A stretch of 64,000 bases of DNA from Mobula hypostoma (taxonomy: Eukaryota), in NCBI RefSeq assembly GCF_963921235.1, contig NC_086107.1, forward strand, positions 96,040,001 to 96,104,000. Reading direction: 5' to 3'. The position numbers and the translations under genes are program-made. The notes below the pieces were generated by a model. It saw nothing but the letters and a program-made list of their open reading frames with translations, ran no database searches and was not told the DNA's origin. Shown one piece after another: positions 4,011 through 64,000 of this stretch. Every line of letters begins with the position of its first letter. Within the stretch, counting starts at the first letter, position 1.

Positions 4011-4339
4011 CTTTTCACTTCTCCTGATCTACTGAGTTGTTTCTGTAGCCACCCCAGACTCTTCACCCACTTGTCCTGCCCATTGCCAACCCACTCCTTC
4101 CCTCTCCTGACTCTCCCAATCTGTTCACCCCACCTCCCCAATTAGTTTCATGCTCCATCCTCCTTTCCTATCAGGTTCCGTCATCTGCAGACCGTTGTCA
4201 CCTTTCACCTTCCAGTCTATATTGTGTTTTCTATTCTTCCCTCCTCCGCCTATCTATCACTCCTCCTAAATGGACTCAGCTGTCACTAATGTAGCTCCTG
4301 CTTCACCCCTTCCTTCACATCTTTATATTGTCTATGCCC

Positions 4340-5218
4340 TGTTACGTACCCCGTAACTGGGTTGCCAAACCAGCAGAAATGGATCACTCAGTTGGAGTCT
4401 GGAGTACTAGAACTAAGAAAGTTTTATTAAAGAAACAAGCAACACAGTAATCGAAAGGATAATAAATGCAACAATTCAACAATGATAACCACACATGTGC
4501 ACAGAATTAAGATAACAGCATCAATCAAGCTCTATCGTTGTCTAGGGGTTAAATGACCAATTTCAAAATGACTCAAAGTTCAGTCCAGTTTGTAGTTCAG
4601 TTCGCAGTAATCGTTGCCATGGCGATGGACAAGGTGGGGGAAGAGAGAGATAGAATAGGAACAACTCATCATTCAGAACGGCTTCACTCACAGACCAGCA
4701 AGATGGCTCACAGACCAGCGAGATGGCTCACAACCAGCTTTTGGGCGGGTCCTTGGTGATGTCACCTGAGGTCACCGACTGTGACCCCTCCTCCAGATGC
4801 GGTCGATCCTCTGCAGTGAACCCGGCACCCAGGCAAGGGCGGACACACACCGGGTTCCCGCTGATCGTACCTTTCCACCCTGTGCGTTGTCCGATACTTC
4901 TCACCACTCGTGAGAGGCGCACCGCTTCCAGGGTCTCGTTACCTCGGGTGGCGTGTGTGTCTGTCTTAGCGAACCTGTCCCTTTTTATCCCCCTGCTGGG
5001 GTATCGCCTGTCCATCACTTCAAACAGTTCAGGGCTCAAAGGGGGGAGCCGCTCCAGACAGCTCTTCCTCCCACATCCCTTCATTACACATCTCCAGACG
5101 CTGCTCCATTGTTCCTTATCTCTCCTTCCCCTGAGGGCAGGTGGCAGACCAACTGCTGATGCCACTGATGCTAGCCCAGGCCAGCAAACATCTTAATTTT
5201 ATGTGTATTCTCATAACA
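4340..5218 (-). repeat. 3' LTR of the Gmr1-like element
   Basis: Direct repeat of 8256-9134; contains a 20-bp internal tandem duplication cagaccagc(a/g)agatggctca. Confidence 0.95.
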
Positions 5219-5390
5219 CTTCCCCCCTTTAAGGATTTTTACCGGGAGGTAAAAATTACAAACATGACTACATTATCTGATACATACACAATATACATCT
5301 TTAACAGTTATTTAGCTAATACAGAGAATTTGAAGCTGTCAATACCTTGACAGACAGTCATCACATTTTCTGTTCCTTTTACACGTGTTA

Positions 5391-8156
5391 TTAATAATCC
5401 CTTAGACCAGGCTCCAACTCAGCAAACTTCATAGTGGCCAAAAACACTGATGAATTGCGACCAATGTAACCTCTCATTTGGTTTTGTCCCGGACCACAAC
5501 AACAAGGGTCGTCCCATTCCGACTCAATTTTCCCTCGCAAGGGCTTAGTAGGAGGGGGACGGGTATTGACCGCAGAGTTATTGCAAAACTTCCTGCAGTA
5601 CCCCACCATCTCCAAAAGCCTTCTGAGGGCCCTCTTGTATGTCGGGGTTGGGAGGTCAGCGATAGCCTGCACTGTAGCTTGCATCACTGCCAGCTGCCCC
5701 TGTGTCACCACAATTCCCAGGTAAGTGACATTCGTGTGGCCGAATTCATTTTTTCCAAGGTTCACTATCAAGCTGGCTTCAGACAGCCGTGTTAAATTGC
5801 CAATACACACCTCTGTGTTCATCAGCCCTTTAGTCACTGAATTACTCAAAAAATATGGGTGTTGTTTACTTGGCCGCCCTATTGTAACCACAATCACCCA
5901 ACGTCCCAGTTCTTTGCATTTCCTCGGGACAATCAAACACATGGGTGCGAGTCGTTTAATTACTCCTTCGGGGATTAAGGGAGAGACCTTATCAGTAGAC
6001 CTGGCCAAAACAATAGCCTTCTCCCATCTGACCGATCCCATCCTAATCTTTTCAAAATGGTTTTTTCCTCTTATCAAGGGGCCCCTAGCTTCATTGATTT
6101 CCACGCTAACACCGACTAGGTTTGTTAGCATATCAAAAGCCGGTGACCGTCTCAGTTCGCGTCGGTCATGATCAATAACATTTTTCCCCCTGGGCAGCCG
6201 GTAACTCTCTTTCATGATTCCACCAACTGTTTCCTCCAGCACCGCAAAATGTCCACCGGGGGGTACCTCGTGGGCCATGTTAAAAACCTCATCCCCATAA
6301 CTCTTTTGCACCACCCCCCACTCCTCATCTGCGGATGCTGTACTTGATTTCCCTTTCTTCCTTAGCACCTCCTCATCCGCACAATAGCTTGTCAAGGCTG
6401 TGTCAGAGAGAGCTGTCTCGGCCAAAACCATCAGCCCCTCGTCTCGCTCCTGCGTCTGCACAAATTCTTTCCTGGCTACTGCTACGTCCGTCCCAGCTCC
6501 CTCACTACCTCTTATCTCACTACACCCTGTCTCATACAAGGTTGGCAGAAATGTTTCAGCCAAATTCACCATCGCGGGCGGGGCCTCCATGCTGGCAGGC
6601 TGACCCGTCAATCTCACGACTGGGAACACGATTCCTCCGGCGATGTCATTACCGAGCAAGACTTCCACGTCTTTCATCGGTAATTCGGACCTCACCCCGA
6701 TCGTGACTAGTCCAGAGACCAGGTTGCTCTGTAAATGTATCTGGTGCAAAGGGACTGACTCTGTCCCTTCCCCAACACCTTTGACCTCTACCTCCCCAAT
6801 CTGGGTCTCTGAGCTAAACTCTAATACACTCTTCAGTATTAGTGACTGACACGCTCCCGTGTCTCTCCAGATCCGCACTGGAACTGGTTTTAACCTCTCC
6901 TTCACTGACACCAGTCCGGCCGAGATAAACCTCTCGCGCCCTTCCTGGACTTTTTCAGACCTGTCCTTCCCTAGCGGTTCGCTTAACAGCTCAATACAGC
7001 CATTCAAAATTTCCGCTTTTCCTTTCCCCGTCTCCTTCCTTGGGGCAAAGCACCTGGACGCAAAGTGTCCGACTTTCCCACAATTATAACAGACGACCCC
7101 AGGAGACTTCCCACCAGACTGCTCCCGGTCTACCTTATCCTTTTCACTAGTCCCCGGCTTACTTTCTGACTTTTCCGGTGGACTCTCCCCGCCGTCCTGA
7201 CTACCCTTCTGGTAGCCTTTACTCGGGGCAACCTTCATTTTATGCGTCAACGCATACTCATCCGCTAACTTAGCAGTTGCGGCTAACGTGGCTGCCTCTT
7301 TCTCATCGAGGTAGGGTCTCATACCCTCAGGGACACAACCTTTAAACTGCTCAATCAGAACCAGTTGCAGCAGTCTGTCATAATCCCCCTCTACCCCTTT
7401 CGAGGCGCACCAACGCTCACAATATGTTTGCATCTCGCGAGCAAACTCCAAATACGTGCGGTCCCACCGCTTCCTCGCATTCCGGAACCTCTGCCGGTAT
7501 GCCTCCGGGACCAACTCATAAGTCCTGAGGATGGCCTCCTTCACCACCTCATACTTCTGGGCATCTTCCGCGGATAAAGCGGAGTAAGCTTGTTGGGCTT
7601 TCCCTTTCAGTACACTCTGAAGTAAGACAACCCACTTATCCCTCGGCCAGTCCTGACTTATAGCTACTTTTTCGAAGTGGAGAAAGTACCGATCCACATC
7701 GGTATCGTCAAATGGGGGAACCAGCCTAACCTCCTGGGTCGCCCGGAACCCTCCACCTTGGTTCGGCACGAGCCCCTGCTCGGCCCTTATCTTTAACTTC
7801 TCCAGCTCAAATTCCCTTTCCCTCTGTTTCTCTTCTCTCTCCATCTGTCTGTCCCTCTCTTTCTCTTCGTGTTCTAACTGCCGTACCCGGAACTCGTGCT
7901 CGAGTCTCAGTTTTTCAAGCTGTACCTGTACCGCGTCTCCAGCAGGTTTTTCAATAGACACCTCCCCCAGCTCACCTTGGGGAAACACACCTTTAGATAC
8001 ATAGTGCTCTACAATAGCTCTGTGTATCTCCTCTCTCCTCATTGTCGACTTCACCTTAGCAAGATTCACCCGTTTTGCCACAGCTATCAATTCCGATTTC
8101 CTGGCATCCTCTAATGCCTCCAAGGTCGGCGCCTTTATAAATTCCTCAACCTCCAT
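5391..8156 (-). CDS. 921-aa Gag (SCAN-like capsid, CCHC knuckle)-protease polyprotein with vestigial IN, RT and RNase H segments
   Basis: Uninterrupted ORF. Motifs: EQFKGCVP..LADEY, CYNCGKVGHFASRC, WRDTGACQS, AHEVPPGGH (IN zinc finger start), VTYLGIVV..VGYCRKF (RT C-terminal part), YIGRNSSVFLATMK (RNase H remnant). No YxDD or DDE core. Confidence 0.9.
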   Translation of the reverse strand: MEVEEFIKAPTLEALEDARKSELIAVAKRVNLAKVKSTMRREEIHRAIVEHYVSKGVFPQGELGEVSIEKPAGDAVQVQLEKLRLEHEFRVRQLEHEEKERDRQMEREEKQREREFELEKLKIRAEQGLVPNQGGGFRATQEVRLVPPFDDTDVDRYFLHFEKVAISQDWPRDKWVVLLQSVLKGKAQQAYSALSAEDAQKYEVVKEAILRTYELVPEAYRQRFRNARKRWDRTYLEFAREMQTYCERWCASKGVEGDYDRLLQLVLIEQFKGCVPEGMRPYLDEKEAATLAATAKLADEYALTHKMKVAPSKGYQKGSQDGGESPPEKSESKPGTSEKDKVDREQSGGKSPGVVCYNCGKVGHFASRCFAPRKETGKGKAEILNGCIELLSEPLGKDRSEKVQEGRERFISAGLVSVKERLKPVPVRIWRDTGACQSLILKSVLEFSSETQIGEVEVKGVGEGTESVPLHQIHLQSNLVSGLVTIGVRSELPMKDVEVLLGNDIAGGIVFPVVRLTGQPASMEAPPAMVNLAETFLPTLYETGCSEIRGSEGAGTDVAVARKEFVQTQERDEGLMVLAETALSDTALTSYCADEEVLRKKGKSSTASADEEWGVVQKSYGDEVFNMAHEVPPGGHFAVLEETVGGIMKESYRLPRGKNVIDHDRRELRRSPAFDMLTNLVGVSVEINEARGPLIRGKNHFEKIRMGSVRWEKAIVLARSTDKVSPLIPEGVIKRLAPMCLIVPRKCKELGRWVIVVTIGRPSKQHPYFLSNSVTKGLMNTEVCIGNLTRLSEASLIVNLGKNEFGHTNVTYLGIVVTQGQLAVMQATVQAIADLPTPTYKRALRRLLEMVGYCRKFCNNSAVNTRPPPTKPLRGKIESEWDDPCCCGPGQNQMRGYIGRNSSVFLATMKFAELEPGLRDY

Positions 8157-8255
8157 TTCTGCTGTTTGTCTTTTCTTTCTTTCGGGAATTTTAACCCAAT
8201 CAATTTACTCCGTCCCAAATTTAGCGTTCAAAATCGCGGACGAGAACCCCACTTA

Positions 8256-9134
8256 TGTTACGTACCCCGTAACTGGGTTGCCAAACCAGCAGAAATGGAT
8301 CACTCAGTTGGAGTCTGGAGTACTAGAACTAAGAAAGTTTTATTAAAGAAACAAGCAACACAGTAATCGAAAGGATAATAAATGCAACAATTCAACAATG
8401 ATAACCACACATGTGCACAGAATTAAGATAACAGCATCAATCAAGCTCTATCGTTGTCTAGGGGTTAAATGACCAATTTCAAAATGACTCAAAGTTCAGT
8501 CCAGTTTGTAGTTCAGTTCGCAGTAATCGTTGCCATGGCGATGGACAAGGTGGGGGAAGAGAGAGATAGAATAGGAACAACTCATCATTCAGAACGGCTT
8601 CACTCACAGACCAGCAAGATGGCTCACAGACCAGCGAGATGGCTCACAACCAGCTTTTGGGCGGGTCCTTGGTGATGTCACCTGAGGTCACCGACTGTGA
8701 CCCCTCCTCCAGATGCGGTCGATCCTCTGCAGTGAACCCGGCACCCAGGCAAGGGCGGACACACACCGGGTTCCCGCTGATCGTACCTTTCCACCCTGTG
8801 CGTTGTCCGATACTTCTCACCACTCGTGAGAGGCGCACCGCTTCCAGGGTCTCGTTACCTCGGGTGGCGTGTGTGTCTGTCTTAGCGAACCTGTCCCTTT
8901 TTATCCCCCTGCTGGGGTATCGCCTGTCCATCACTTCAAACAGTTCAGGGCTCAAAGGGGGGAGCCGCTCCAGACAGCTCTTCCTCCCACATCCCTTCAT
9001 TACACATCTCCAGACGCTGCTCCATTGTTCCTTATCTCTCCTTCCCCTGAGGGCAGGTGGCAGACCAACTGCTGATGCCACTGATGCTAGCCCAGGCCAG
9101 CAAACATCTTAATTTTATGTGTATTCTCGTAACA
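8256..9134 (-). repeat. 5' LTR of the Gmr1-like element
   Basis: Direct repeat of 4340-5218, followed on the minus strand by PBS tggggttctcgtccgcgat. Confidence 0.95.
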
Positions 9135-9147
9135 GCCCCCTTACCCG

Positions 9148-27857: not shown

Positions 27858-30800
27858 CTTTTTTTAATACTTTATTTGCAATTTTCTGTTTTACAAAGAC
27901 AAAATATATTCAAGGCGTACAAAACAGTACAAAGGAAATACAGCTCCAGGTGGTGCACAGACAAAACAAATCAAAAACAAAAAGGCTGCCAGATAATTTA
28001 CAAGATTACATAAATAAACTTTCAGAAAAAGAGTTGACACAATAGTGACATCATGGAAGCAATGTAAAGTAAAATGAATAAAGGAATCCGGTTGGGCACC
28101 ACACCCACTCATGAGACTAGACAAGTCAAGGTCACTACGTATGTGAGGTATATGACACTGAGCCAATAAGGGTACCCATATTCTCTGAAATATATTCTGT
28201 GTATTGGGTTTGTGCAGACGCAGTCTTTCCATTTGTATAACAGACAACATCTCCTTGAGCCAGTGTGCGAAGGTGGGTGGAGTAGTAGACTTCCAGGACA
28301 GAAGAATAAGTTTCTTAGCCACCACCATTCCTAGATGCAGAGCAATCTGCAAAGTCTCTGTAGAGCATCCAAAGATGGCGAGATGGTGATTGGGCTGAAT
28401 GTCTCGAGAATAGACTTTTGAAAGCCACTCAAAAATTGCAGTCCAAAAGTTGTATAATGTAGGGCAAAACCAGAAAAGATGTGCTAGTGAGCCCTCAGCA
28501 GAGCAGCGCTGATCGCATGCAGGAGACACAGATGGGAAGCTGCGATTCAGTTTTGTTTTTGAATAATGCAATCTATGCATCACCTTGTACCGGATTAACC
28601 TGTAGCGTGAAGTAATAGAACAACAGTGAACCCAGGACATTGCCTCCTCCCAAAGTTCTACTAATATCTCTGAGTTCAAGTCCCTGGCCCAGGCTTCCCT
28701 AATAAGATCTGTAGAAACCAAAGGAGTAAAGCAATTCACAAATTTTGATATTAACTGTTCGGAGTCTGGAGAGAGCAAGAGGTTTTCAAGAAAGGGATGA
28801 GTGGTGGAAGTCGGCTCGAAGTGTGGGCACTTTTCCTTAACGTAGTGTCTGACATGGAGATGGTGAAAAAAATGTGAATTTGGAAGGTTGAACTTAGTGC
28901 TTAATTGTGTGTCGACCCCCTGGCCACCCTCAGGTTGCTCGATTCGCTGTCGTCTAGGGAAACAGCCCTCGGCCCTGCCAAACTGGATAATTAGTTTGTG
29001 TGGATGCTGTGTGATGTACCCCACCCCACCCAAATAACAGACAATATACCAGATACGATTAAATGATTTACAGTTTATAGATATTACTGGAACTATATAA
29101 TTAATAGAGAATAAAATATAAAAGAAAAATAATAGGCACCACACTAAACAAAGTTCAATCTCTTCGTGCACAAAACAGTTGGAACTCAGGACCCTTCTTC
29201 TTCACCCTGCAACCCCTCAGACCACCTCGACCGGCCACCTGGGACCAACAACGGTGGTTGACCAGACGCTCCACACGAGTCCATCTCCATCTCCTCGCTG
29301 AACGCCCTCCTCGGGGTCCACCTGGTTCATCCTCTGTCCCTCTCTCCTGCCTTCTCCCCCAAAACCCTGCGCATACAGTATCTTCAAATACAGCAAAAAC
29401 ATAACTATCCCAATTGGTTCATAACATCATTTTATCAGTAATGTGATTCAACAAACTGCTAGCAGGAAGGATTTTCTCAGCGTTTAACATAAGAAAGAAG
29501 CATTCCCAAGTATCACATAACAAAGAAGCCATTTTAATTAGCCTACACAGTAACATAAGAGATGAAACCACCTTACACTCTCCCCCCACCAAATAAAGTC
29601 ATGCCCTCATGACTTCTAAATAACTCGCCAACCAGTCCTACAGACACACAACACACACATACACAGATACGCGCAGTGACAGTGCTCCCCAAACAGTGGA
29701 CCTTACTCCCGTCCCACGGGCGCTACATAGGCCAACCTATCTGGGAGCTTCTTAACCCTCCAAGACCTCTGTACCCCCTCACCTAAACCCAAAAGGCTCA
29801 GACACTACTAGGGATACCTCAGGCCTGCTTGCCAACTCCTCTCTCACTCAGGCCACCATTACAGCTCGGAGCCCCCTGTCCCATGTCTCATTCAGATTGG
29901 CGACCTGGGTTTCCATCCCCAGGTCCACCACCGTCTGTTCCAACTGCAGGAAGTTCAACTGGTATGTCGGGTCATTTTTCTCACATTGCACCAAACTCCT
30001 CCAGCCAAAAACTCCTCCACATTTGACACTTAGCTTCTGTTGCCTGGGCTCAGCCACTCGCCTCGCCTCATAGTCCCCCCAGGCGAATCCAAGCTCTAGG
30101 CAGTCATCTACATACACCAAAACTCCACACTCCTTCACTTCCCCCATGGTCTTCCTCATGCCCTGTGGGAAGGATGCAGGGGCTCCGGATATGCCCTTGG
30201 GCATCTTTTCGGATCAGAAAAATCCTAGGGAACTAATAACAGCCGTCTTCGGCTCGACAGCCGCACTCCTCAGGATCTGGCAACATCCACTCCTCAGATC
30301 CAGCACATTAAACCACGTCGCATAATCCGCACACACGCTACCTCCATCTTCCATGGCGCCAGGGTCCAGTTGCCGTGACCTCTCTCTCACTGAGGTGTCT
30401 TCAGCGGTCAACTCCCCTCCCTCAGTCCCTCGGGGTAGTTCAGAGCATCTATTAAGAGGGTCTCACCCTCAGCTACTTTCCCCAGGCCGTACCACCGCTG
30501 GGTCTGGTTTAAATTCGGTACCGGCTCAAGGCTGCTGCATACGTCCTCAGAAGCAACTCAACACGCTGGGTGCCCAGACAATGCCCCCATGAACTCCAGG
30601 GTCATTAACCAATCATCGTCTTCTGGATAACTACTGGTACTGGTACCCAAAATCTCCGGTGCCCTTGCGGTTGTCGAGGGTAAATGCTTCAGACTCCGGT
30701 TGTAAAACGAACTGTACAACAACTTGACCTGCGCCCGGGGTCGAGGATGACTTTAGCATCGCTTCCCTCTATCCATAATGACACCCTTGGGCGTGGTCCC

Positions 30801-31499
30801 TCTAAGCCTTCAGGAATAGGGTCTTTTCCTTTCGGAAATTCATTTGTACATTGCTGGGAATGTACTTCCCCAGAGACCCCAAGCCGTTCCCCCACTGGGC
30901 CTCTACTAAGTTTCCCGACACCTCTCTGATCAGCTGAACAATTGAAGGAGGGGCTGATCCCCCTGGCACTGCAAGCAATTTAGCCGCCCTCCTAGCCAGA
31001 GAAGACACACTGAAAACTTTCCCCCCTCTTTCAAATAACTGACAGCTGTCACTACGGTGTAAGTGAACCTGACAACTCTAACACCATCACCAGCCCGCCG
31101 CCTTAAACTTTCAACCAATCCTTGTCGCTGTCCCTCAACCGAGCACTGCCATTCATCTAACAACTGAGAGATCTGCTCCACCCACGTCTCGCACGCCTCC
31201 GCCCCTCTTGGGGTGGACACTATCTCAAGCGCCAGGCAGAGCCTGCCAGAACTAAAACATTTATTCGCAGACACTTACCTCCAAATCAGACCACTCTTTC
31301 CTCTCTCTCCGAACAGCATGGACAGCCCCGAGTGCCACGTCCAATTCGTCAATGCCAGCAAACGAAGACAAAGAACAAAGACTGCACCCACCACGCATAC
31401 AGCAATAACCAGCAAATAACCCACAGAGACACACATTACAGATTTAAACACGGCACCCACACAGCATACCAGTAGACACAATCCCAGACAAAGCCCACA

Positions 31500-34400
31500 C
31501 ACTGCGTGAGTGGGGCCAGTGAAGGAGTGGAGCTTTGAGGCCTTGACTCGAGAGATTCTGGCAGTTTTGGCAGTTGGTCTGTGCAATCAAGTCAATCAAG
31601 ATTTGAATAGATCAGCAGAAAGCCGTTTATCAGACAATCAAGATTTGAATAGCTCAGACTCAGCAGAAAGCAGCTGATTGGGCAGTTGAGGTCAGGTGAC
31701 CAAACATTCTGAAAAGCTCAAACAGATAAATAGAGGGATAGCTCAAGCGAAGTGGCCAGTGCGTGAGTGGGGCCAGTGAAGGAGTGGAGCTTTGAGGCTT
31801 TGACTAGAAGAGGCGGAGGGCAAGCTAGCTCGCAGTTAGTCTTTACGATGTCTCCTGAGACGGTGATGTGCCTCTCATGTGAGATGTGGCAGTCTTGGGG
31901 GAACGCCCCTCTCCCGCAGAGTCACGTCTGCCAGAAGTGCATACGGCTGGGCGATCTGGAAGACCGTGTAAGGAATCTGGAGCAGCAGCTGGATGACCTT
32001 CGACTCATAAGGGAGAATGTGGCTGTCATAGATGCGAGCTACAGGGAGGTAGTCACATCTAGGCTGTCGGAAGCAGGTCGTTGGGTGACAGTCACGGGGG
32101 GAAAGCAAAGGTGAGCAGACAGGTAGTGCAGAGCACCCCTGTAGCCATTCCCCTGAATAATAAGTTTACCGTCCTGGATACTGTTGGTGGGGACGACCAA
32201 CCAGGTGTGAGCCACGGTGGCAGGGCCTCCGGCACTGAGTCTGACCCTGTGGTGCAGAAGGGTGGGACAGAGAAGAGGAGAGCTGTTGTCATTGGAGACT
32301 CTATAGTCAGGGGAGCAGACAGGAGATTTTGTGGACGTGAGAAGGATACCCGCATGGTTTGTTGCCTCCCGGGTGCCAGGGTCCGGGATGTCTCTGACCG
32401 GGTGCACGACATCCTGGTGTGAGAGGGAAAGCAACCAGAAGTCGTGATACATGTTGGGACCAACGACATAGGCAGGAAGAGGGATGAGGTCCTGAAGTGT
32501 GAGTTTTGGGAATTAGGCAGAAGGCTGAAGAACAGGACCTCAAGGGTGACGTTCTCAGGATTGCTGCCAGTGCTACGTGACAGAGATGGTAAGAATTGGA
32601 GGAAATGGCAGTTGAATGTGTGGCTGAGGAGTTGATGCAGGGAGCAGGATTTTAGATTTTTAGATCATTGGGGTCTCTTCTGGGGAAGGTGGGACCTGTA
32701 CAGATTGGATGGGTTGCACCTGAACTCGAGGGGGAGCAATATCCTTGCAGGTAGGTTTGCTAGCATGGTTCGGGAGGGTTTAAACTAATTTGTGAGGGTG
32801 ATGGGACCCAGAGCGATAGAGCAGTGAAAGAAGTGCATGGAGTAAAGCCAGATCTAACATACAGAGAGGCTTTGAGGAAAGAGAAGCAGAATAAACGGTG
32901 TAAAGACAGTAAGGTAGAAGGGCTGAAATGTGTGTACTTCAATGCAAGAAGCATCAGGAACAAAGGTGATGAGCTGAGAGCTTGAATACATACATGGAAT
33001 TATGATGTAGTGGCCATTAGAGAGACTTGGCTGGCACCAGGGCAGGAATGGATTCTCAATATTCCTGGATTTCAGTGCTTTAAAAGGGATAGAGAGGGTG
33101 GAAAAAGGGGAGGAGGGGTGGCATTACTGGTCAGGGATACTATTACAGCTACAGAAAGGCTGGGTAATGTAGCAGGATCCTCTTTTGAGTCAATATGGGT
33201 GGAAGTCAGGAACAGGAAGGGAGCAGTTACTCTACTGGGGGTATTCTATAGGCCCCCTGGTAGCAGCAGAGATACAGAGGAGCAGATTGGGAGGCAGATT
33301 TTGGAAAGATGCAAAAATAACAGGGTTGTTATCATGGGTGACTTTAACTTCTCTAATATTGATTGGCACTTGATTAGTTCCAAGGGTTTAGATGGGGCAG
33401 AATTTGTTAAGTGTGTCCAGGATGGATACCTGTTACAGTATGTGGACAGGCCGACCAGGGGGAATGCCATACTAGATCTAGTACTAGGTAATGAACCGGG
33501 TCAGGTCACAGATCTCTCAGTGGGTGAGCATCTGGGGGACAGTGACCACCGCTCCCTGTCCTTTATAATTATCATGGAAAAGGATAGAATCAAAGAGGAC
33601 AGGAAAATTTTTTTTAATTGGGGAAAGGCAAATTATGAGGCTATAAGGCTAGAACTTGCGGGTGTGAATTGGGATGATGTTTTTGCAGGGAAATGTACTA
33701 TGGACATGTGGTCGATGTTTAGAGATCTCTTGCAGGATGTAAGGGATAAATTTGTCCCGTTGAGGAAGATAAAGAATGGTAGGGTGAAAGAACCATGGGT
33801 GACAAGTGAGGTGGAAAATCTAGTCAGGAGAAAGAAGGCAGCATACATGAGGTTTAGGAAGCAAGGATCAGATGGGTCTATTGAGGAATATAGGGAAGCA
33901 AGAAAGGAGCTTAAGAAGGGGCTGAGAAGAGCAAGAAGCGGGCATGAGAAGGCCTTGGCGAGTAGGGTAAAGGAAAACCCCAAGGCATTCTTCAATTATG
34001 TGAAGAAAAAAAGGATGACAGAAGTGAAGGTAGGACCGATTAGAGATAAAGGTGGGAAGGTGTGCCTGGAGGCTGTGGAAGTGAGCGAGGTCCTCAGTGA
34101 ATACTTCTCTTCAGTATTCACCAATGAGAGGGAATTTGATGATGGTGAGGACAATATGAGTGAGGTTGATGTTCTGGAGCATGTTGATATTAAGGGAGAG
34201 GAGGTGTTGGAGTTGTTAAAATACATTAGGACAGATGAGCCCCCGGGGCCTGACAGAATATTCCCCAGGCTGCTCCACGAGGCGAGAGAAGAGATTGCTG
34301 AGCCTCTGGCTAGGATCTATATGTCCTCGTTGTCCACGGGAATGGTACCGGAGGATTGGAGGGAGGCGAATGTTGTTCCCTTGTTCAAAAAAAGGTAGTT

Positions 34401-35783
34401 GGGATAGTCCGGGTAATTATAGACCAGTGAGCCTTACGTCTGTGGTGGGAAAGCTGTTGGAAAAGATTCTTAGAGATAGGATCTGTAGGCATTTAGAGAA
34501 TCATGGTCTGATCAGAGACAGTCAGCATGGCTTTGTGAAGGGCAGATCGTGTCTAACAAGCCTGATAGAGTTCTTTGAGGAAGTGACCAGGCATATAGAT
34601 GAAGATAGTGCAGTGGATGTGATCTATATGGATTTTAGTAAGGCATTTGACAAGGTTCCACACGGTAGGCTTATTCAGAAAGTTAGAAGGCATGGGATCC
34701 AGGGAAGTTTGGCCAGGTGGATTCAGAATTGGTTTGCCTGCAGAAGGGAGAGGGTGGTGGTGGATGGAGTACATTCAGATTGGAGGATTGGGACTAGTGG
34801 TGTCCCACAAGGATCTGTTCTGGGACCTCTACTTGTCGTGAATTTTATTAACGACCTGGATGTGGGGGTAGAAGGGTGGGTTGGCAAGTTTGCAGATGAC
34901 ACAAAGGTTGGTGGTGTTGTAGATAGTGTAAAGGATTGTCAAAGATTGCAGAGAGACATTGATAGGATGCAGAAGTGGGCTGAGAAGTGGCAGATGGAGT
35001 TCAACCCGGAGAAGTGTGAGGTGGTACACTTTGGAAGGACAAACTCCAAGGCAGAGTACAAAGTAAATGGCAGGATACTTGGTAGTGTGGAGGAGCAGAG
35101 GGATCTCGGGGTACATGTCCACAGATCCCTGAAAGTTGCCTCACAGGTGGATAGGGTAGTTAAGAAAGCTTATGGGGTGTTAGCTTTCATAAGTCGAGGG
35201 ATAGAGTTTAAGAGTTGCGATGCAATGATGCAGCTCTATAAAACTCTGGTTAGGCCACACTTGGAGTATTGTGTCCAGTTCTGGTCGCCTTACTATAGGA
35301 AGGATGTGGAAGCACTGGAAAGGGTACAGAGGAGATTTACCAGGATGCTCTCTGGTTTAGAGAGTATGCATTATGATCAGAGATTAAGGGAGCTCGGGCT
35401 TTACTCTTTGGAGAGGAGGAGGATGATAGGATACATGATAGAGGTGTACCAGATAATAAGAGGAATAGATAGAGTGGATAGCCAGCGCCTCTTCCCCAGG
35501 GCACCACTGCTCAATACAAGAGGACATGACTTTAAGGTAAGGGGTGGGAAGTTCAAGGGGGATATTAGAGGAAGATTTTTACTCAGAGAGTGGTTGGTGC
35601 GTGGAATGCACTGCCTGAGTCAGTGATGGAGGCAGATACACTCGTGAAGTTTAAGAGACTACTAGACAGGTATATGGAGGAATCTAATGTGGGGGCTTAT
35701 ATGGGAGGCAGGGTTTGAGGGTTGGCACAACATTGTGTGCTGAAGGGCCTGTACTGTGCTGTACTGTTCTATGTTCTATGTTC
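31500..35783 (+). mobile_element. Near full-length CR1 LINE; ORF1 about 31848-32790 (disrupted), ORF2 about 32920-35680 with a frameshift in the A-run at about 34387-34394
   Basis: Zinc finger plus esterase ORF1. Endonuclease-RT ORF2 with GDFN, SDH, DFSKAFD, GVPQGSVLGP and FADDTK. 3' tail (tatgttc)n. Confidence 0.96.
33010..35626 (+). pseudogene. CR1 ORF2 endonuclease-reverse transcriptase (two overlapping ORFs, 462 and 463 aa)
   Basis: ORFs 33010-34398 and 34235-35626 join at VVPLFKK|KGSWDSPGNYRPVSL. Confidence 0.92.
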
Positions 35784-36820
35784 AATGTCACCCCCCGGCC
35801 ACCATCAGGGTTGCTCGGCTCACTGTCGTCTAGGGAAACAGCCCTTGGCCCCGCCAAACTGGGTAATTAGTTTGTGTGGATGCTGTGTAATGAACCCCAC
35901 CCCGCCCAAATAACAGACAATACACCAGATACGATTAAATGATTTACAGTTTATAGATATTACTGGAACTATATAATTAATAGAGAATAAAATATAAAAG
36001 AAAAATAAAAGGCGCCACACTTATCAATGTTCAATCTCTTTGTGCACAAAACAGTTGGAGCTCAGGACCCTTCTTCTTCACCCTGCGACCCCTCGGACCA
36101 TCTCGACTGGCCGCCTGGGACCAACAACAGTGGTCGACCAGACGTTCCACATGAGTCCGTCTCCGTCTCCTCGCCGATCACCCTCCTCGGGGTCTGACCC
36201 CGTTAGCGGACTCACAGCACCTGGTTCATCCTCTGTCCCTCTCTCCCGCCTTCTCCCCCAAAACCCCGCGCATACAGTATCTTCAAATACAGCAAAAACA
36301 TAACAACTATCCCAATTGGTTCATAACATCTTTTTATCAGTAACGTGATTCAGCAAACTGCTAGCGGGAAGGATTTTCTCAGCGTTTAACATAACAAAGA
36401 AGCATTCCCAAGTATAACATAACAAAGAAGCCATTTTAATTAGCCTACACAGTAACATGAGACGAAACCCCCTTATATGTGTGAATGATGCAAATTGGCC
36501 ATCAATGTATAGATCTAAGAAAGTTTTGATACCCCTCTCTTTCCAGACTGCAAATACCCTGTCTAATTGTCCAGGCTTGAATGAGTGATTTTGACAAATG
36601 GGAATGTGTATGGAAACACTGGGAGTTTGGTGAGCCACTTTTATCTGATTTAATATTTGTAAAGCATTCTTTAAGGTAAAGTTTTTTTTGGATTAGCTTG
36701 TCTGTTGAGGCATAAATGGAAAGCAGAAGAGCAGGAAGTGAAGAATATTTAACAACAGAGGCTTCCAGCTGTAGCCATGAAGGTTTTTCCTTTGGTCTTA
36801 GCACCTCCACATTTCCAGTA

Positions 36821-47111: not shown

Positions 47112-47862
47112 CAAATATTCTCCTACCTCCAGCCCTCGGTCTCCCTTCCTTTTCTTCCCCACAGGTGGATAACCACACAACAGCTGGTTCAATGGGTGAC
47201 TCATTTTTGCATATCCTTTCACCAATCGCCAGTACTACCCACAAAACCCCAAAAAGGAGCGTAAGGCGCTCACCTTCTGGGGTCTCGGCCAGGTGGTTAC
47301 TGCGGCTATCTTGGCTGGATCAGTGGCCACTCCATTTCGCGAGATTATGTGCCCAACATAGCTGACCGACGTCTTACAGAACTGACATTTATCCAGGGAA
47401 AGTTTTAACCCTTCCTCCTTCAGCCGACTCAGCACCTTCAGCAGCCGCTCCTCATGTTCTTCCAACGTAGATCCAAACACTATCAGGTCATCCAGGTACA
47501 CTAATACCTCCAGCAGGTTCATATCCCCCACTGTCCTCTCCATGAGCTGCTGGAAGGTGGCTCGGGCCCTCGATATGCCTTGGGGCATTCGTTCGAACTG
47601 GAAAAATCCCAGGAGGCAGATAAAGGCCGCCTTCTCTTTATCGGCCTCACTCATCGGAATCTGGTAATACCCACTCCGCAAATCCAATACGCTAAACCAC
47701 CGCGCCCCACTTAAACAGGCCAATGCGTCTTCCACCCTTGGGACCGTATATTGGTCGGGAACAGTGCACCGGTTCAGGGTCCTATAGTCCACGCACATGC
47801 GTACCTTCCCATTTTTCTTCCTTGCCACCACTATGGGGGACGCATAGGGGCTCCGGGACTCT
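47112..47862 (-). mobile_element. Gypsy RT core fragment (intact YLDD)
   Basis: RMCVDYRTLN..LDLRSGYYQI..RMPQG..LVYLDDL..KCQF..LRSFLGFCG. Confidence 0.93.
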
Positions 47863-47959
47863 TCGTACCTTCTTTAGCAGAGGATATTTCCTCTAAGGAT
47901 AATGGCTCATTCAATTTATGTTTGAAATCAGAAGAAAGTTTAGGAAAATTTAAACTATT

Positions 47960-50921: not shown

Positions 50922-53900
50922 TGTAGCGATGTGCTACACACAGCGCTAGAATAACCACACGGAGTCGGTGAGTTAGAGTTGCGATGAAAGAGATTTATTC
51001 AAACTTCGCGGCCTGCTTTAAAGCCTTCCCGTTCCCGCCCTCCCTGGGCGGGACTACTGTGGGGAATGCATATTCCCAGACCCTTTCCACGCGGGACTTT
51101 CCCCCTGCTGGTGAAGATGGCCTGGCACCCTTTTTGCTGCCGGCCCTCTGCCTGCGCGCGCTGTTTCGAGAGCCGGTTCGTGGGTGCCAGAAAGTGGGTC
51201 GCCACATAACCCCCCCCCAGAACTGGCGATACCTCCCCCAATGTCCACAGTCTGGATCGGTCTCTGTTTGGGAGGTCTGCCCCTGCGCCGCGGTGCCTGA
51301 GCCTGGACCGGTTGCGCCAAGTCCACATGGGCCGGTTTGAGTCGGTCCACCGTGAAAACCTTCTCTCTCCCCCCAATGTCCAGCACGAACGTGGACCCGT
51401 TGTTCCTGATCACCTTAAACGGCCCCTCGTAGGGCCGCTGTAGCGGTGCCCGGTGTCCGCCCCGTCGTACAAAAAGAAACTTACAGTTCTGCAGGTCTTT
51501 GGGTACGCAGGTCAGGCTCTGTCCGTGCTGTGAAGTGGGTATGGGGGCCAGGTTACCGAGCCTCTCCCGTAGTCTGTCCAGGACTGCTGTGGGTTCTTCC
51601 TCTTGCCCCCTTGGGGCTGGTATGAACTCTCCTGGGACGACCAGGGGTGCGCCGTACACCAACTCGGCTGACGAGGTGTGTAGATCCTCTTTGGGCGCCG
51701 TGCGGATTCCGAGCAGGACCCAGGGAAGTTCGTCCACCCAGTTAGGCCCCTCCAGGCAGGCCATGAGAGCCGATTTCAGGTGACGGTGGAAGCGCTCCAC
51801 TAGTCCGTTCGACTGTGGGTGGTAGGCAGTTGTGTGGTGTAGCTGTGTTCCTAAAAGTCTGGCCATAGCCGATCACAGGCTGGAGGTGAACTGGGCGCCC
51901 CTGTCGGAGGTAATGTGGGCCGGTACCCCAAAGCGTGCTACCCAGGTTGCGATCAGTGCTCGGGCGCAGGATTCGGAGGTGGTGTCGCTGAGCGGGACTG
52001 CCTCTGGCCATCTGGTGAACCGGTCTATCATAGTTAGGAGGTACCGCGCTCCTCGTGACACTGGCAGGGGCCCCACGATATCCACATGGATGTGGTCGAA
52101 CCTCCGGCGGGTGGGTTCGAACCGCTGCGGTGGAGCCTTGGTGTGCCGCTGCACCTTGGCCGTTTGGCACTGCATACACGTTTTGGCCCATTCACTGACC
52201 TGTTTATGAAGTCCATGCCACACGAACCTGTTGGAGACCAGCCGGACAGTTGTCCTGATGGAGGGGTGCGCTAAGTTGTGAATGGATTTGAACACCCGCC
52301 GGCGCCAGGCTGCTGGGACGACGGGGCGGGGTTGGCCAGTAGCTACGTCACATAGTAGGGTCCTCTCACCTGGGCCTACGGGGAGGTCTTGGAGCTGCAA
52401 ACCGGAGACTGCAGTCCTGTAACTGGGGATCTCAGCGTCTGCCTGCTGTGCCTCTGCCAGCGCTGCATAGTCCACCTCCTGGGACAGGGCCTGTATGGTA
52501 GGTCTGGAAAGTGCGTCTGCCACGACATTGTTCTTTCCAGAGACATGCCGGATGTCCATCGTGTACTCGGAGATGTAGGACAGATGTCGCTGCTGGCGGG
52601 ACGACCAGGGGTCGGACACCTTAGTGAACGCAAAGGTAAGCGGTTTGTGGTCTGTGAACGCGGTGAAGGGCCTACCTTCTAAGAAGTACCTGAAATGCCG
52701 GATTGCCAGGTATAGTGCCAATAGCTCCCGGTCGAAAGCACTGTATTTGAGTTCGGGTGGTCGTAGGTGTTTGCTGAAGAACGCCAGGGGTTGCCAGCGA
52801 CACTCGATGAGTTGTTCCAGCACTCCACCGACTGCTGTGTTGGATGCGTCCACCGTGAGGGCAGTAGGAACGTCCGTTCTGGGGTGCACTAGCATCGCGG
52901 CGTTTGCCAAGGCTTCTTTGGTTTTAACGAAAGCAGTTGCGGCCTCTTCGTTCCAGGTAATGTCCTTGCCCTTACCCGACATTAGAGTGAACAAGGGGCG
53001 CATGGTTCAGGCTGCTGAGAGGAGGAAACAGTGGTAGAAATTCACTATACCTACGAATTCCTGCAAGCCTTTGATTGTGTTGGGTCGGGGGAAGTGGCGG
53101 ACCGCGTCTACCTTGGCGGGCAGCGGGGTTGCCCCGTCTTTGGCCCAGGAAGTCGATGGTGTCGAGTCCGAACTGGCATTTGGCTGGATTGATTGTAAGG
53201 CCGAATTCACTCAGGCGGGAGTAGAGCTGGCGGAGGTGGGACAGATGCTCCTGCCGACTACTGCTGGCTATGAGGATGTCGTCCAAATAGATGAATGCAA
53301 AGTCCAGGTCGCGTCCCACCGCGTCCATTAGCCGCTGGGAAGTCTGTGCGGCATTCTTTAGACCAAACGGCATTCGGAGGAATTCGAAAAGTCCGAACGG
53401 GGTGATAAGTGCTGTTTTGGGGATGTCGTCCGGATGTACAGGGATTTGATGGTATCCCCGGACGAGATCTACCTTGGAAAAGATCCTTGCGCCGTGTAGG
53501 TTTGCTGCAAAGTCTTGAATGTGCGGCACAGGGTAGCGGTCTGGCGTTGTAGCCTCGTTCAGTCTGCAGTAGTCACCGCATGGTCTCCAGCCCCCCCGTT
53601 GCCTTGGGCACCATGTGAAGTGGGGAGGCCCATGGGCTGTCGGACCGTCGTATGATCCCTAATTCCTCCATCTTCTTGAACTCCTCCTTCGCCAGTCGGA
53701 GCTTGTCCGGGGGAAGCCTTCGAGCACGGGCATGGAGGGGTGGTCCCTGGGTCGGGATGTGGTGCTGTACTCCGTGTCTGGGCATGGCTGCTGTGAACTG
53801 CGGTGTCAGTACTGATGGGAAATCCACCAGGACCCTGGTGAATTCATCGTCAGACAGCGTGATGGAGTCCAGGTGTGGGGCTGGCAACTGTGCTTCACCC

Positions 53901-55222
53901 AGGGAGAACGTTTGAAAAGTCTTGGCGTGGACTAATCGCTTCCCTTGCAAGTCAACCAGCAGGCTGTGGGCTCGTAGAAAATCTGCCCCCAGCAGTGGTT
54001 GGGCCACGGCGGCCAGTGTGAAGTCCCACGTGAACCGGCTGGAGCTGAACTGTAGCCGCACCGTGCGGGTGCCGTAGGTTTGTATTGTGCTGCCATTAGT
54101 GGCCCTCAGGGTGGGTCCCGGTTCTCTGTTGTGGGTGTCGTAACTCGTTGGAGGTAAGACGCTGATCTCCGCTCCGGTGTCGACCAAAAAGCGGCGTCCC
54201 GACTGCTTGTCCCAGACGTACAGGAGGCTGTCCTGATGGCCAGCCGCCGTAGCCATCAGCGGCGGCTGGCCCTGGCGTTTCCCGGGAATTTGCAGGGCGG
54301 TCTGCAGCGGCGGGCCTCCGTGCCCCACCGCTGGTGGTAGAAACACCATTGTTCGTTGGGCTCGCGGCTTGGTGATCTGTGCGACGGATGCCCCTCTCTC
54401 TTTCCTGGCATTCCACAGCACATCTGCTCGGGCCGCCACCTCCCGGGGTTGCTGAAATCTGCGTCGGACAGCAGCAGGCGTATGTCCTCGGGCAGTTGCT
54501 CTAGGAACGCCTGCTCAAACATGAGGCAGGGTTTGTGTCCTTCAGCCAGGGCCAGCATCTCGTTCATTAATGCTGACGGCGGCCTGTCTCCCAAACCATC
54601 CAGGTGCATTAAGCGGCGTGCTCGATCGCGCCGTGAGAGTCCGAAAGTCCTTATGAGCAGGGCTTTGAATGCTGTGTATTTGCCGTCCTTCGGGGGCGAC
54701 TGTATATTAAACTCCTCAACTTGTGCAGCAGTCTCCTGGTCGAGGGAGCTCAGCACGTAGTAGTAGCGAGTGGACTCCGAGGTTATCTGCCGAATGTGGA
54801 ATTGTGCTTCTGCTTGTTTGAACCATAAATGGGGTCGCAGCGTCCAGAAGCTTGGCAGTTTTAATGAAACTGCGTGAACAGATGCAGCGTCGGTCATCTC
54901 TGGTCCAAATATCGTTTGGGCCGTTGGGGTCACCAATTGTAGCGATGTGCTACACACAGCGCTAGAATAACCACACGGAGTCGGTGAGTTAGAGTTGCGA
55001 TGAAAGAGATTTATTCAAACTTCGCGGCCCGCTTTAAAGCCTTCCCGTTCCCGCCCTCCCTGGGCGGGACTACTGTGGGGAATGCATATTCCCAGACCCT
55101 TTCCGCGCAGGATTTTCCCCCTGCTGGTGAAGATGGCCTGGCGCCCTTTTTGCTGCCGGCCCTCTGCCTGCGCGCGCTGTTTCGTGAGCCGGTTCGTGGG
55201 TGCCAGAAAGTGGGTCGCCACA
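50922..55222 (-). mobile_element. Full-length Gypsy LTR retrotransposon (gag-PR-RT-RH-IN), with frameshifts and stops
   Basis: 285-bp LTRs at 50922-51206 and 54938-55222 (about 6 differences by eye); TSD aatc; tRNA-Trp PBS; G-rich PPT. Motifs LVDTGAEIS, YLDD, TVDASN, TDHKPL, HNLAH..CMQC, SDRG, NGLVERFH, YEGPF. Confidence 0.97.
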
Positions 55223-60673: not shown

Positions 60674-63600
60674 TGTTACGTACCCCGTAACTGGGTTGCC
60701 AAACCAGCAGAAATGGATCACTCAGTTGGAGTCTGGAGTACTAGAACTAAGAAAGTTTTATTAAAGAAACAAGCAACACAGTAATCGAAAGGATAATAAA
60801 TGCAACAATTCAACAATGATAACCACACATGTGCACAGAATTAAGATAACAGCATCAATCAAGCTCTATCGTTGTCTAGGGGTAAATGACCAATTTCAAA
60901 ATGACTCAAAGTTCAGTCCAGTTTGTAGTTCAGTTCGCAGTAATCGTTGCCATGGCGATGGACAAGGTGGGGAAGAGAGACATAGAATAGGAACAACTCA
61001 TCATTCAGCACAGCTTCACTCACAGACCAGCGAGATGGCTCACAAACAGCATTTGGGCGGGTCCTTGGTGATGTCACCTGAGGTCACCGACTGTGACCCC
61101 TCCTCCAGATGCGGTCGATCCTCTGCAGTGAACCCGGCACCCAGGCAAGGGCGGACACACACCGGGTTCCCGCTGATCGTACCTTTCCACCCTGGTCGTT
61201 GTCTGGCACTTCTCACCCACTCGTGAGAAGCGTACCGCTTCCAGGGTCTCGTTACCTCGGGTGGCGTGTGTGTCTGTCTTAGCGAACCTGTCCCTTTTTA
61301 TCCCCCTGCTGGGGTATCGCCTGTCCATCACTTCAAACAGTTCAGGGTTCAAAGGGGGGAGCCGCTCCAGACAGCTCTTCCTCCCACATCCCTTCATTAC
61401 ACATCTCCAGACGCTGCTCCATTGTTCCTTATCTCTCCTTCCCCTGAGGGCAGGTGGCAGACCAACTGCTGATGCCACTGATGCTAGCCCAGGCCAGCAA
61501 ACATCTTAATTTTATGTGTATTCTCGTAACACTTCCCCCCTTTAAGGATTTTTACCGGGAGGTAAAAATTACAAACATGACTACATTATCTGATACATAC
61601 ACAATATACATCTTTAACAGTTATTTAGCTAATACAGAGAATTTGAAGCTGTCAACACCTTGACAGACAGTCATCACATTTTCTGTTCCTTTTACACGTG
61701 TTATTAATAATCCCTTAGACCAGGCTCCAACTCAGCAAACTTCATAGTGGCCAAAAACACTGATGAATTGCGACCAATGTAACCTCTCATTTGGTTTTTG
61801 TCCCGGACCACAACAACAAGGGTCGTCCCATTCCGACTCAATTTTCTCTCGCAAGGGCTTAGTAGGAGGGGGACGGGTACTGACCGCAGAGTTATTGCAA
61901 AACTTCCTGCAGTACCCCACCATCTCCAAAAGCCTTCTGAGGGCCCTCTTGTCTGTCGGGGTTGGGAGGTCAGCGATAGCCTGCACTGTAGCTTGCATCA
62001 CTGCCAGCTGCCCCTGTGTCACCACAATTCCCAGGTAAGTGACATTCGTGTGGCCGAATTCATTTTTTCCAAGGTTCACTATCAAGCTGGCTTCAGACAG
62101 CCGTGTTAAATTGCCAATACACACCTCTGTGTTCATCAGCCCTTTAGTCACTGAATTACTCAAAAAATATGGGTGTTGTTTACTTGGCTGCCCTATTGTA
62201 ACAGACATAACCCAACGTCCCAGTTCTTTGCATTTCCTCGGGACAATCAAACACATGGGTGCGAGTCGTTTAATTACTCCTTCGGGGATTAAGGGAGAGA
62301 CCTTATCAGTAGACCTGGCCTAAACAATAGCCTTCTCCCATCTGACCGATCCCATCCTAATCTTTTCAAAATGGTTTTTTCCTCTTATCAAGGGGCCCCT
62401 AGCTTCATTGATTTCCACGCTAACACCGACTAGGTTTGTTAGCATATCAAAAGCCGGTGACCGTCTCAGTTCGCGTCGGTCATGATCAATAACATTCTTC
62501 CCCCTGGGCAGCCGGTAAATCTCTTTCATGATTCCACCAACTGTTTCCTCCAGCACCGCAAAATGTCCACCGGGGGGTACCTCGTGGGCCATGTTAAAAA
62601 CCTCATCCCCATAACTCTTTTGCACCACCCCCCACTCCTCATCTGCGGATGCTGTACTTGATTTCTCTTTCTTCCTTAGCACTTCCTCATCCGCACAATA
62701 GCTTGTCAAGGCTGTGTCAGAGAGAGCGGTCTCGGCAAAAACCATCAGCCCCTCGTCTCGCTCCTGCGTCTGCACAAATTCTTTCCTGGCTACTGCTACG
62801 TCCGTCCCAGCTCCCTCACTACCTCTTATCTCACTACACCCTGTCTCATACAAGGTTGGCAGAAATGTTTCAGCCAAATTCACCATCGCGGGCGGGGCCT
62901 CCATGCTGGCAGGCTGACCCGTCAATCTCACGACTGGGAACACGATTCCTCCGGCGATGTCATTACCGAGCAAGACTTCCACGTCTTTCATCGGTAATTC
63001 GGACCTCACCCCGATCGTGACTAGTCCAGAGACCAGGTTGCTCTGTAAATGTATCTGGTGCAAAGGGACTGACTCTGTCCCTTCCCCAACACCTTTGACC
63101 TCTACCTCCCCAGTCTGGGTCTCTGAGCTAAACTCTAATACACTCTTCAGTATTAGTGACTGACACGCTCCCGTGTCTCTCCAGATCCGCACTGGAACTG
63201 GTTTTAACCTCTTTTTCACTGACACCAGTCCGGCCGAGATAAACCTCTCGCGCCCTTCCTGGACTTTTTCAGACCTGTCCTTCCCTAGCGGTTCGCTTAA
63301 CAGCTCAATACAGCCATTCAAAATTTCCGCTTTTCCTTTCCCCGTCTCCTTCCTTGGGGCAAAGCACCTGGACGCAAAGTGTCCGGCTTTCCCACAATTA
63401 TAACAGACGACCCCAGGAGACTTCCTACCAGACTGCTCCCGGTCTACCTTATCCTTTTCACTAGTCCCCGGCTTACTTTCTGACTTTTCCGGTGGACTCT
63501 CCCCGCCGTCCTGACTACCCTTCTGGTAGCCTTTACTCGGGGCAACCTTCATTTTATGCGTCAACGCATACTCATCCGCTAACTTAGCGGTTGCGGCTAA

Positions 63601-64000
63601 CGTGGCTGCCTCTTTCTCATCGAGGTAGGGTCTCATACCCTCAGGGACACAACCTTTAAACTGCTCAATCAGAATCAGTTGCAGCAGTCTGTCATAATCC
63701 CCCTCTACCCCCTTCGAGGCGCACCAACGCTCACAATATGTTTGCATCTCGCGAGCAAACTCCAAATACGTGCGGTCCCACCGCTTCCTCGCATTCCGGA
63801 ACCTCTGCCGGTATGCCTCCGGGACCAACTCATAAATCCTGAGGATGGCCTCCTTCACCACCTCATACTTCTGGGCATCTTCCGCGGATAAAGCGGAGTA
63901 AGCTTGTTGGGCTTTCCCTTTCAGTACACTCTGAAGTAAGACAACCCACTTATCCCTCGGCCATTCCTGACTTATGGCCACTTTTTCGAAATGGAGAAAG
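60674..64000 (-). mobile_element. Second copy of the non-autonomous Gmr1-like element (3' LTR 60674-61531; runs off the window)
   Basis: Near-identical to about 4340-7686 with the same pol deletions. It has its own TAG stop at 62320-62322, a +1 T near 61795-61799, and no 20-bp LTR duplication. Confidence 0.95.

Follow-up and report, generated by a model that had tools for sequence, protein, structure and literature searches.

Gag-keeping non-autonomous LTR retrotransposons are known in plants, and a role of translation in cis has been reported for one mouse endogenous retrovirus (ERV). Plant TR-GAG elements have LTRs, a primer-binding site (PBS), a polypurine tract (PPT), a target-site duplication (TSD) and one Gag ORF with no enzymes, and they show signs of activity with a helper that is often not found (PMC4350172). 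In sugar beet, GAG/PROT are kept with partly decayed RT, RH or INT in non-autonomous families, 8 of 115 families in that study; these remnants are patchy among copies, and the terms "in-frame" and "reading frame" are absent from the main text (PMC13570524). Mouse IAP 1-delta-1 is likewise a non-autonomous LTR element with one fused ORF left by a deletion, and this fusion is reported to aid retrotransposition in cis with enzymes supplied in trans (PMC7411935, PMC6466679). It differs from the element described here in its retroviral origin, as an ERV, and in having lost one 1.9-kb segment that includes part of gag; it needs Gag in trans. In the RSV case, nonsense-mediated decay targets unspliced retroelement RNA whose stop comes early and whose 3' UTR is long, and a protective RNA element follows the gag stop.

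Here we describe a ray element from the window, the whole 64-kb stretch of Mobula hypostoma DNA that was analysed. In contrast to the mouse IAP, it retains a complete Gag and protease and acquired its indels, at least 11, step by step over long divergence. TR-GAG elements measure <4 kb, encode Gag alone in their ORF and have a 5-bp TSD (PMC4350172). The ray element is not one of them: it has 4795 bp (4.8 kb), an intact protease, a 409-aa in-frame pol relic, a 4-bp TSD and a vertebrate host. Its family can be read as a time series along which constraint on the reading frame parts from constraint on the amino acids. Our literature search, with most subscription journals, Repbase and Dfam outside its coverage, returned no paper on such a ray family.

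Structure and classification of the element

The element occupies 4340..9134 on the minus strand (Table 1). Its LTRs (879 bp each, TGT...ACA) differ at exactly one position pair, 5213/9129, as the original prediction had stated. That prediction also called TSD, PBS and PPT intact, which holds for the TSD and for the PPT but is unproven for the PBS; this site (8233-8251) resembles a tRNA-Pro site but is imperfect, with about two differences from the canonical one, and the 64-kb window contains no tRNA gene for comparison. The single frame of 921 aa was recovered with its full Gag and protease, including a SCAN (PF02023) match at the Gag capsid end (aa 217-306, 7239-7508, E 1.2e-12), a CCHC knuckle and a retropepsin fold with DTG. 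The ORF stops ~170 nt from the 3' LTR, and the sole sense-strand AATAAA/ATTAAA, inside that LTR at 4423-4428, lies ~960 nt downstream of the stop codon. The tail has no Pfam match up to E 1; over its 409 codons the two other frames contain 33 and 32 stops, so the open frame is not a product of chance.

Table 1. Features of the ray retrotransposon and its second copy (positions in the window).
Feature	Position	Strand	Remark
TSD, left copy, GCCC	4336..4339	.	sequence
3' LTR, 879 bp	4340..5218	-	
Polypurine tract adjoining 3' LTR	5219..5230	-	
RNase H relic end, out of frame, at least 3 frame switches	5345..5425	-	
Single ORF, 921 aa: Gag, protease and 409-aa eroded pol tail	5391..8156	-	
RNase H relic, in frame, aa 886-921; ~85-97 aa of core absent	5391..5501	-	
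RT relic, aa 772-885: dead YxDD remnant, primer grip, thumb	5502..5843	-	
RT N-terminal relic, aa 725-771, ends KQHPY; then ~128-aa deletion	5844..5984	-	
Integrase C-terminal end and IN-RT spacer relic, aa 665-724	5985..6164	-	
Integrase zinc-domain relic, aa 589-664; two histidines kept, cysteines gone	6165..6392	-	
PR-IN linker, aa 513-588, stepwise shortening; conserved CAVTR-like motif lost	6393..6620	-	
Retropepsin-type protease, aa 409-512, DTG intact	6621..6932	-	retropepsin fold
CCHC zinc knuckle, aa 355-369	7050..7094	-	
Gag: helical N-terminus, E/R/K coiled coil, capsid	7239..8156	-	
Primer-binding site, imperfect	8233..8251	-	4 nt from LTR
5' LTR, 879 bp	8256..9134	-	
TSD, right copy, GCCC	9135..9138	.	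sequence
Second copy of the family, cut by window end	60674..64000	-	

The pol relics map in PR-IN-RT-RH order, as predicted, onto P0107 and P0016, full-length relatives that have a single gag-pol ORF like the ray element; compared with them, the element is ~600 aa shorter. A ~289-aa deletion before aa 665 took out the integrase catalytic core, and with the RT and RNase H cores deleted as well, the element is not an autonomous LTR retrotransposon. The claim that no YxDD is left has to be corrected, since a dead remnant, CIGN, was found near aa 784-787, corresponding to CIGD in P0103/P0104 and YIGD in P0106. The RNase H end, said to lie just past the stop, does so only in part: its pieces lie in different shifted frames, and the frame changes at least three times within ~80 nt, beginning ~11 codons upstream of the stop.

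Gmr1-like Ty3/Gypsy elements are defined by an integrase upstream of RT (PMC8220671), and the ray element shares with them this order and the SCAN-matching capsid end of Gag (PMC8220671 and PMC8321522). The best solved-structure matches of the RT relic are 4ol8 (E 3.5e-4) and the Ty3-G Gag-Pol 7q5b (E 1.3e-3), and the relic has 46-49% identity to proteins with integrase before RT. Architecture, SCAN-like capsid end and Gypsy-type RT relic thus support a placement of the element among Gmr1-like Ty3/Gypsy elements; there was no named Gmr1 reference sequence among the matches, and the RT core is deleted in the element. No intact ray helper was found among 44, 33, 8 and the best 150 of 855 protein matches, which is weak evidence; absent helpers are expected where repeats are poorly annotated. 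The nearest relatives keeping the start of the integrase core, P0013 and P0012, are both truncated.

Copies and deletion history

The original prediction missed the second copy, which is 98% identical to the first over 3349 columns. Its visible Gag-protease part is open; its tail is broken twice, codon 717 being a premature stop and one extra base lying near codon 892, an observation against the explanation we favor below. Over 5219-7686 the two window copies are 30 substitutions and one insertion apart. Among near-identical copies with a visible end, 9 of 14 share the same stop and 5 break at differing places. Run X1 contains 154 junction contigs at one LTR end, in line with a multi-copy family; contig depth itself was never read as a number of copies. 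With its LTRs, PPT, TSD and many copies of a common deleted structure, this is a non-autonomous LTR retrotransposon family. Runs X6 and X7, RNA only by guess, contain near-identical contigs of at most 315 nt over all 30 bins, which does not demonstrate transcription.

In RefSeq, the family appears as many gene models, some with isoforms. Together with the SCAN match, this could point to a domesticated gag-derived host gene, as in the SCAN, PNMA or Arc cases, but the near-identical LTRs, the TSD, two copies in 64 kb with many elsewhere, and the independent decay of copies make domestication hardly credible. From an extended open frame within a repeat it does not follow that the encoded protein has a function, and such frames enter RefSeq as "uncharacterized proteins" and false host-gene exons.

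The named Mobula proteins form an identity series (58, ~80, 84-89 and >90%) with the big deletions common to all. P0106, 58% identical to the tail, has the same ~289-aa integrase and ~128-aa RT deletions and retains segments of 7, 18, 6 and 4 aa that were lost later, while linker segments of 9 and 7 aa are still present in P0005 and P0105. The description "very young" therefore fits the insertion, with its one LTR mismatch, and not the lineage, because the deleted structure is common to relatives whose tails are just 58-81% identical. Judged from these comparisons, the copy is young and the non-autonomous lineage old. Several separate in-frame deletions, as predicted, also rule out an origin of the tail by one simple deletion. 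A free-deletion alignment overfitted aa 640-760; given the direct map onto P0106, we discarded the RGPL and DKV anchors of that alignment as well as its YWQ match in a shifted frame.

Reading frame and amino-acid constraint

By hand tally, the tail has 11 indels, all in frame, and at least six of them postdate the loss of both catalytic cores; six in-frame indels by chance would have a probability of (1/3)^6 = 0.0014. When all three frames were scored alike, scoring windows above the cut-off (21/31 against P0106, 8/31 against full-length P0107) were all in the ORF frame. In-frame and shift events number 11:0 upstream and 0:3 in the terminal part (Fisher p 0.003), fixed frame switches being confined to the last ~30 relic codons. 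Over the P0001-P0106 divergence, ~9 stops are expected neutrally and none is seen (P 1e-4 for both branches, 0.01 for one branch), the comparators being annotated proteins chosen for open frames, whose gene models may splice past breaks. There is no stop among the 37 listed ORF variants, and the best 12 of 32 small indels are all in the LTR; common variants here are the best 40 of 459 substitutions and 12 of 32 indels, with a support ranking that favors the deeper LTR. P0004 and P0005, on different contigs, have a common frameshift that leaves ~100 codons to the end, and the P0106 frame closes ~35 codons short, so the full tail length is not strictly required.

The tail frame could also be free of selection, a lucky master copy having been over-represented because annotation and first readers notice long ORFs. 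Five of the 14 visible young copies are tail-broken, the comparators come from protein databases, and the difference in constraint between Gag-protease and tail is not significant (see below), all of which would agree with such a history. However, ancestral pol can be followed through the window DNA in a single frame over 11 junctions, about 9 stops were expected, LTR indels between the window copies are in multiples of three in 0 of 4 cases, and at least three shifts accumulated in the terminal ~80 nt. We regard the absence of selection as quite unlikely. From these sequence comparisons, the frame was kept along the lineage while the tail amino acids were not.

For common variants, pN/pS is 0.32 in Gag-protease (p 0.014) and 0.80 in the tail (p 0.44), a contrast that is not significant (Fisher p 0.30) in a count that leaves aside one variant beyond the ORF and four that are private to the window, each of which changes an amino acid; the contrast between copies A and B (ratios 0.47 and 1.47, p 0.14 and 0.81) is not significant either. 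A dN/dS near 1 had been named as evidence against selection for translation. The tail value of 0.80 was indeed seen, but it does not refute frame selection because frame and amino acids are decoupled. In relative-rate comparisons with P0012 as outgroup, the integrase relic (30 vs 3 changes) and linker (11 vs 1) contrast with the capsid end (2 vs 4) and protease (13 vs 9); the nucleocapsid region is accelerated too with one outgroup (12 vs 3, p 0.035). Together, these data support constraint on Gag and protease and its release in the pol relic.

The tail polypeptide might instead have its own job, for example with the RT thumb relic or linker acting in particle assembly, protease activation or recruitment of helper Pol. 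In favor of this, ~70 aa of the RT grip/thumb are free of deletions, and identity to 39 full-length relatives is still 50%, where the mutual identity of these relatives is 61% (sd 10). The linker (560-600) and thumb (823-850) are the sole tail parts with pLDDT >50, low values elsewhere possibly stemming in part from misalignment across deletions; folding the tail from its sequence alone gave no useful model (pLDDT 32). With the CAVTR-like junction motif lost, moreover, the tail may remain fused to the protease. On the other hand, thumb identity fell from 58% in P0106 to 50%, each listed variant in aa 776-921 is amino-acid changing, the integrase relic is strongly accelerated, and the stingray lineage carries unrelated filler. 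A specific function of the tail is thus unlikely.

Proposed translation of the tail and life style

We consider it probable, at roughly 0.65, that the element is a semi-autonomous Gmr1-like Gag-protease LTR retrotransposon whose tail is translated filler. The semi-autonomous life style, already suggested in the original prediction, is supported. Gag and protease would come from the element itself, and RT, RNase H and integrase would have to be supplied in trans, as we infer because all three cores are deleted yet new TSD-bearing copies exist. Since gag and pol form one ORF in the Gmr1-like group, the loss of pol through a stop codon would mean that much of the RNA went untranslated; copies still transposing would have been those that kept ribosomes running to within ~170 nt of the 3' LTR, with substitutions and in-frame deletions tolerated in the tail and stops and frameshifts purged save near the end. 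Translation would presumably act in cis, through escape from nonsense-mediated decay or through a translation-packaging coupling of the kind reported for mouse IAP 1-delta-1, neither of which we prefer to the other. For the decay route, the proposed solution is a stop moved near the 3' end, in place of the protective RNA element that RSV uses. A normal 3' UTR of already ~960 nt weakens the simple long-UTR decay model. The leftover tail kept in one frame suggests that translating matters more than content, and its natural alleles make it testable why defective LTR elements keep ORFs, by way of RNA surveillance or cis-packaging.

Conserved Gag and protease, in a multi-copy family (the junction contigs of run X1) with no intact helper seen, would also be compatible with a defective-interfering competitor whose Gag-protease-junk protein co-assembles with the helper polyprotein, dilutes active Pol and lowers helper mobility. 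Absent helpers are expected in any case, and interference would be a side effect that leaves the frame unexplained, although compatible with translated filler; as a separate explanation it is very improbable.

More generally, Gag-protease parasites of single-ORF gag-pol retrotransposons might need translation that reaches almost to the 3' LTR, no matter what is encoded there, a rule that we put forward tentatively and hold to be rather doubtful. If true, captured host fragments would be selected for frame alone, a route to new Gag-fusion proteins, and one cause would underlie both the eroded pol tail and the different in-frame filler of the stingray relatives P0014, P0015 and P0017, which is a decayed gag-protease duplicate.

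Structure and in-frame erosion of the element

The eroded Gag-protease element at 4340-9134 is a genuine feature of this DNA. Its LTRs of 879 bp differ at a single position, a 4-bp target site duplication (TSD) is present on both flanks, a purine tract adjoins the 3' LTR, and the primer site, which we take to be tRNA-Pro-like, is imperfect. The sole ORF of the element encodes 921 aa and includes a SCAN-type capsid and a CCHC knuckle. In the fold predicted from 58 aligned relatives, confidence is high for Gag and protease (10-residue blocks mostly 85-97) and mostly below 50 for the tail; structure comparison of this fold returned retropepsins as top matches, and aa 553-921 had no Pfam match. 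Separately, an E/R/K coiled-coil repeat (window 7770-7940, Gag aa 73-126) differs in length between copies, never breaking the frame, and the resulting proteins range from 921 to 1004 aa.

Repeat features in the window
Feature	Coordinates	Strand	Description
LTR retrotransposon	4340-9134	minus	
Direct repeats, ~690 bp	28910-36475		89% identical, 6.9 kb apart
LINE-like endonuclease and RT frames	32986-35626		enclosed by the direct repeats
Gypsy-type RT fragment	47235-47873		YLDD; 31-34% identity to Gmr1-like proteins
LTR element	50922-55222		285-bp LTRs, 97.9% identical, TGT...ACA, 4-bp TSD
Second family copy	60674-64000		98% identical to the first, 56 kb off, same orientation

Searching with the tail as query, we found P0106 (M. 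birostris XP_072125372.1) to be 58% identical over the full extent of the tail. Compared to the full-length relatives P0107 and P0016, P0106 shows gaps of 5 aa, ~289 aa (starting at the first cysteine of the integrase zinc domain and reaching as far as the C-terminus of integrase) and ~128 aa in RT, and YIGD with the next 18 residues is still present. Comparators P0102-P0104, with 79-81% identity over the RT-RNase H query, lack these 18 residues plus a further 7 aa, and share the stop of the window's protein. A further 9, 7, 4 and 6 aa were lost in P0105, P0005 and P0004 (84-89%) and then in the young copies; the tally also holds losses of 10-12 aa of linker and the RNase H deletion. The original prediction of several frame-preserving deletions is borne out by 11 indels, with lengths taken from protein alignments of comparators, all in frame and at least six arising after both cores were gone. 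With equal scoring of the three frames, the cut-off was reached by 21 of 31 alignment windows for P0106 and by 8 of 31 for P0107, and every one of these was in the frame of the ORF. Unlike these upstream in-frame indels, the last ~30 relic codons contain at least three frame switches (Fisher p 0.003, hand tally).

Semi-autonomous LTR elements are already described in reports from plants (PMC4350172, PMC13570524) and mouse (IAP 1-delta-1: PMC7411935, PMC6466679); added here is a long, stepwise erosion that preserves frame in a vertebrate Gmr1-like lineage.

Conserved frame, relaxed amino acids

Relative-rate tests, with Hypanus P0012 as outgroup, compared changes on the window branch with those on its sister P0013: integrase relic 30 vs 3, linker 11 vs 1, nucleocapsid region 12 vs 3, protease 13 vs 9, capsid end 2 vs 4. 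With two distant outgroups the integrase-relic excess was repeated (22 vs 5; 21 vs 5) and the nucleocapsid excess was not significant. The best 40 of 459 substitutions included 38 internal ones; 33 of these entered the count once four variants specific to the window copy and one lying outside the ORF were set aside. Gag-protease variants were 10 silent and 8 changing (pN/pS 0.32, p 0.014) and tail variants 5 silent and 10 changing (pN/pS 0.80, p 0.44), a contrast that is not significant in these common variants (p 0.30). None of the listed substitutions, the best 40 of 459, creates a stop; a rough analytic estimate gives ~9 stops expected under neutral drift across the distance between comparators P0001 and P0106. 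All 12 indels among the best 12 of 32 lie in the LTR, which the support ranking favours. These results show that the frame is kept while amino acids are released, with Gag and protease constrained.

The RT, RNase H and integrase enzymes would be supplied in trans by a presumed helper, and translation through the tail may help the RNA in cis. Early-stop unspliced RNA is known to undergo decay in Rous sarcoma virus (PMC2925335), and a cis benefit is reported for the deleted gag-pol fusion of IAP 1-delta-1 (PMC7411935, PMC6466679). A stop after the protease would leave a computed 3' UTR of ~2,200 nt, compared to ~960 nt now. Tolerated late breaks (relatives P0004 and P0005, P0106, terminal shifts) fit a distance effect and also show that the full-length frame rule is not absolute.

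A parallel case may exist in stingray proteins. In Hemitrygon P0014 and P0015 and Hypanus P0017, Gag-protease is followed in frame by 246-344 aa that match gag-protease (E values of 2.5e-14 to 1.2e-5 with P0001), apparently a decayed duplicate standing where pol would be; the tails of P0015 and P0017 share 71% identity across two genera and have the same ending.

Other copies and repeats

Mobula rays supply the closest named proteins, with 77-92% identity among top named matches. In the second window copy, Gag-protease is open in the visible part, the tail is broken twice (a premature stop at codon 717 and a one-base insertion near codon 892), and the LTR has a 20-nt deletion and three single-base indels relative to the first copy. 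Among 14 near-identical copies with a visible end, nine have the common stop and five are broken at differing places, and four models start within gag or protease, counts that are biased to long frames because they were taken from annotated proteins. Run X1 yielded 38,984 contigs, and one LTR end had 154 junction contigs, a figure that includes solo LTRs; in run X9, from a second organism, all 30 bins were covered too.

Four variants near-private to the 4340-9134 copy (window 5533, 5639, 6799, 7112) all change amino acids, as expected of drift after insertion. RefSeq models P0009, P0040, P0052 and P0057 carry this family's Gag under host-gene names (phosphatidylserine decarboxylase, abtb1, UBE2G2, PPM1Lb), probably insertions taken for exons. 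Elsewhere in the window, the LTR element at 50922-55222 has the ordinary RT-RH-IN order with its coding region in several pieces, and the stretch bounded by the ~690-bp direct repeats is possibly an old LTR element carrying a nested insertion.
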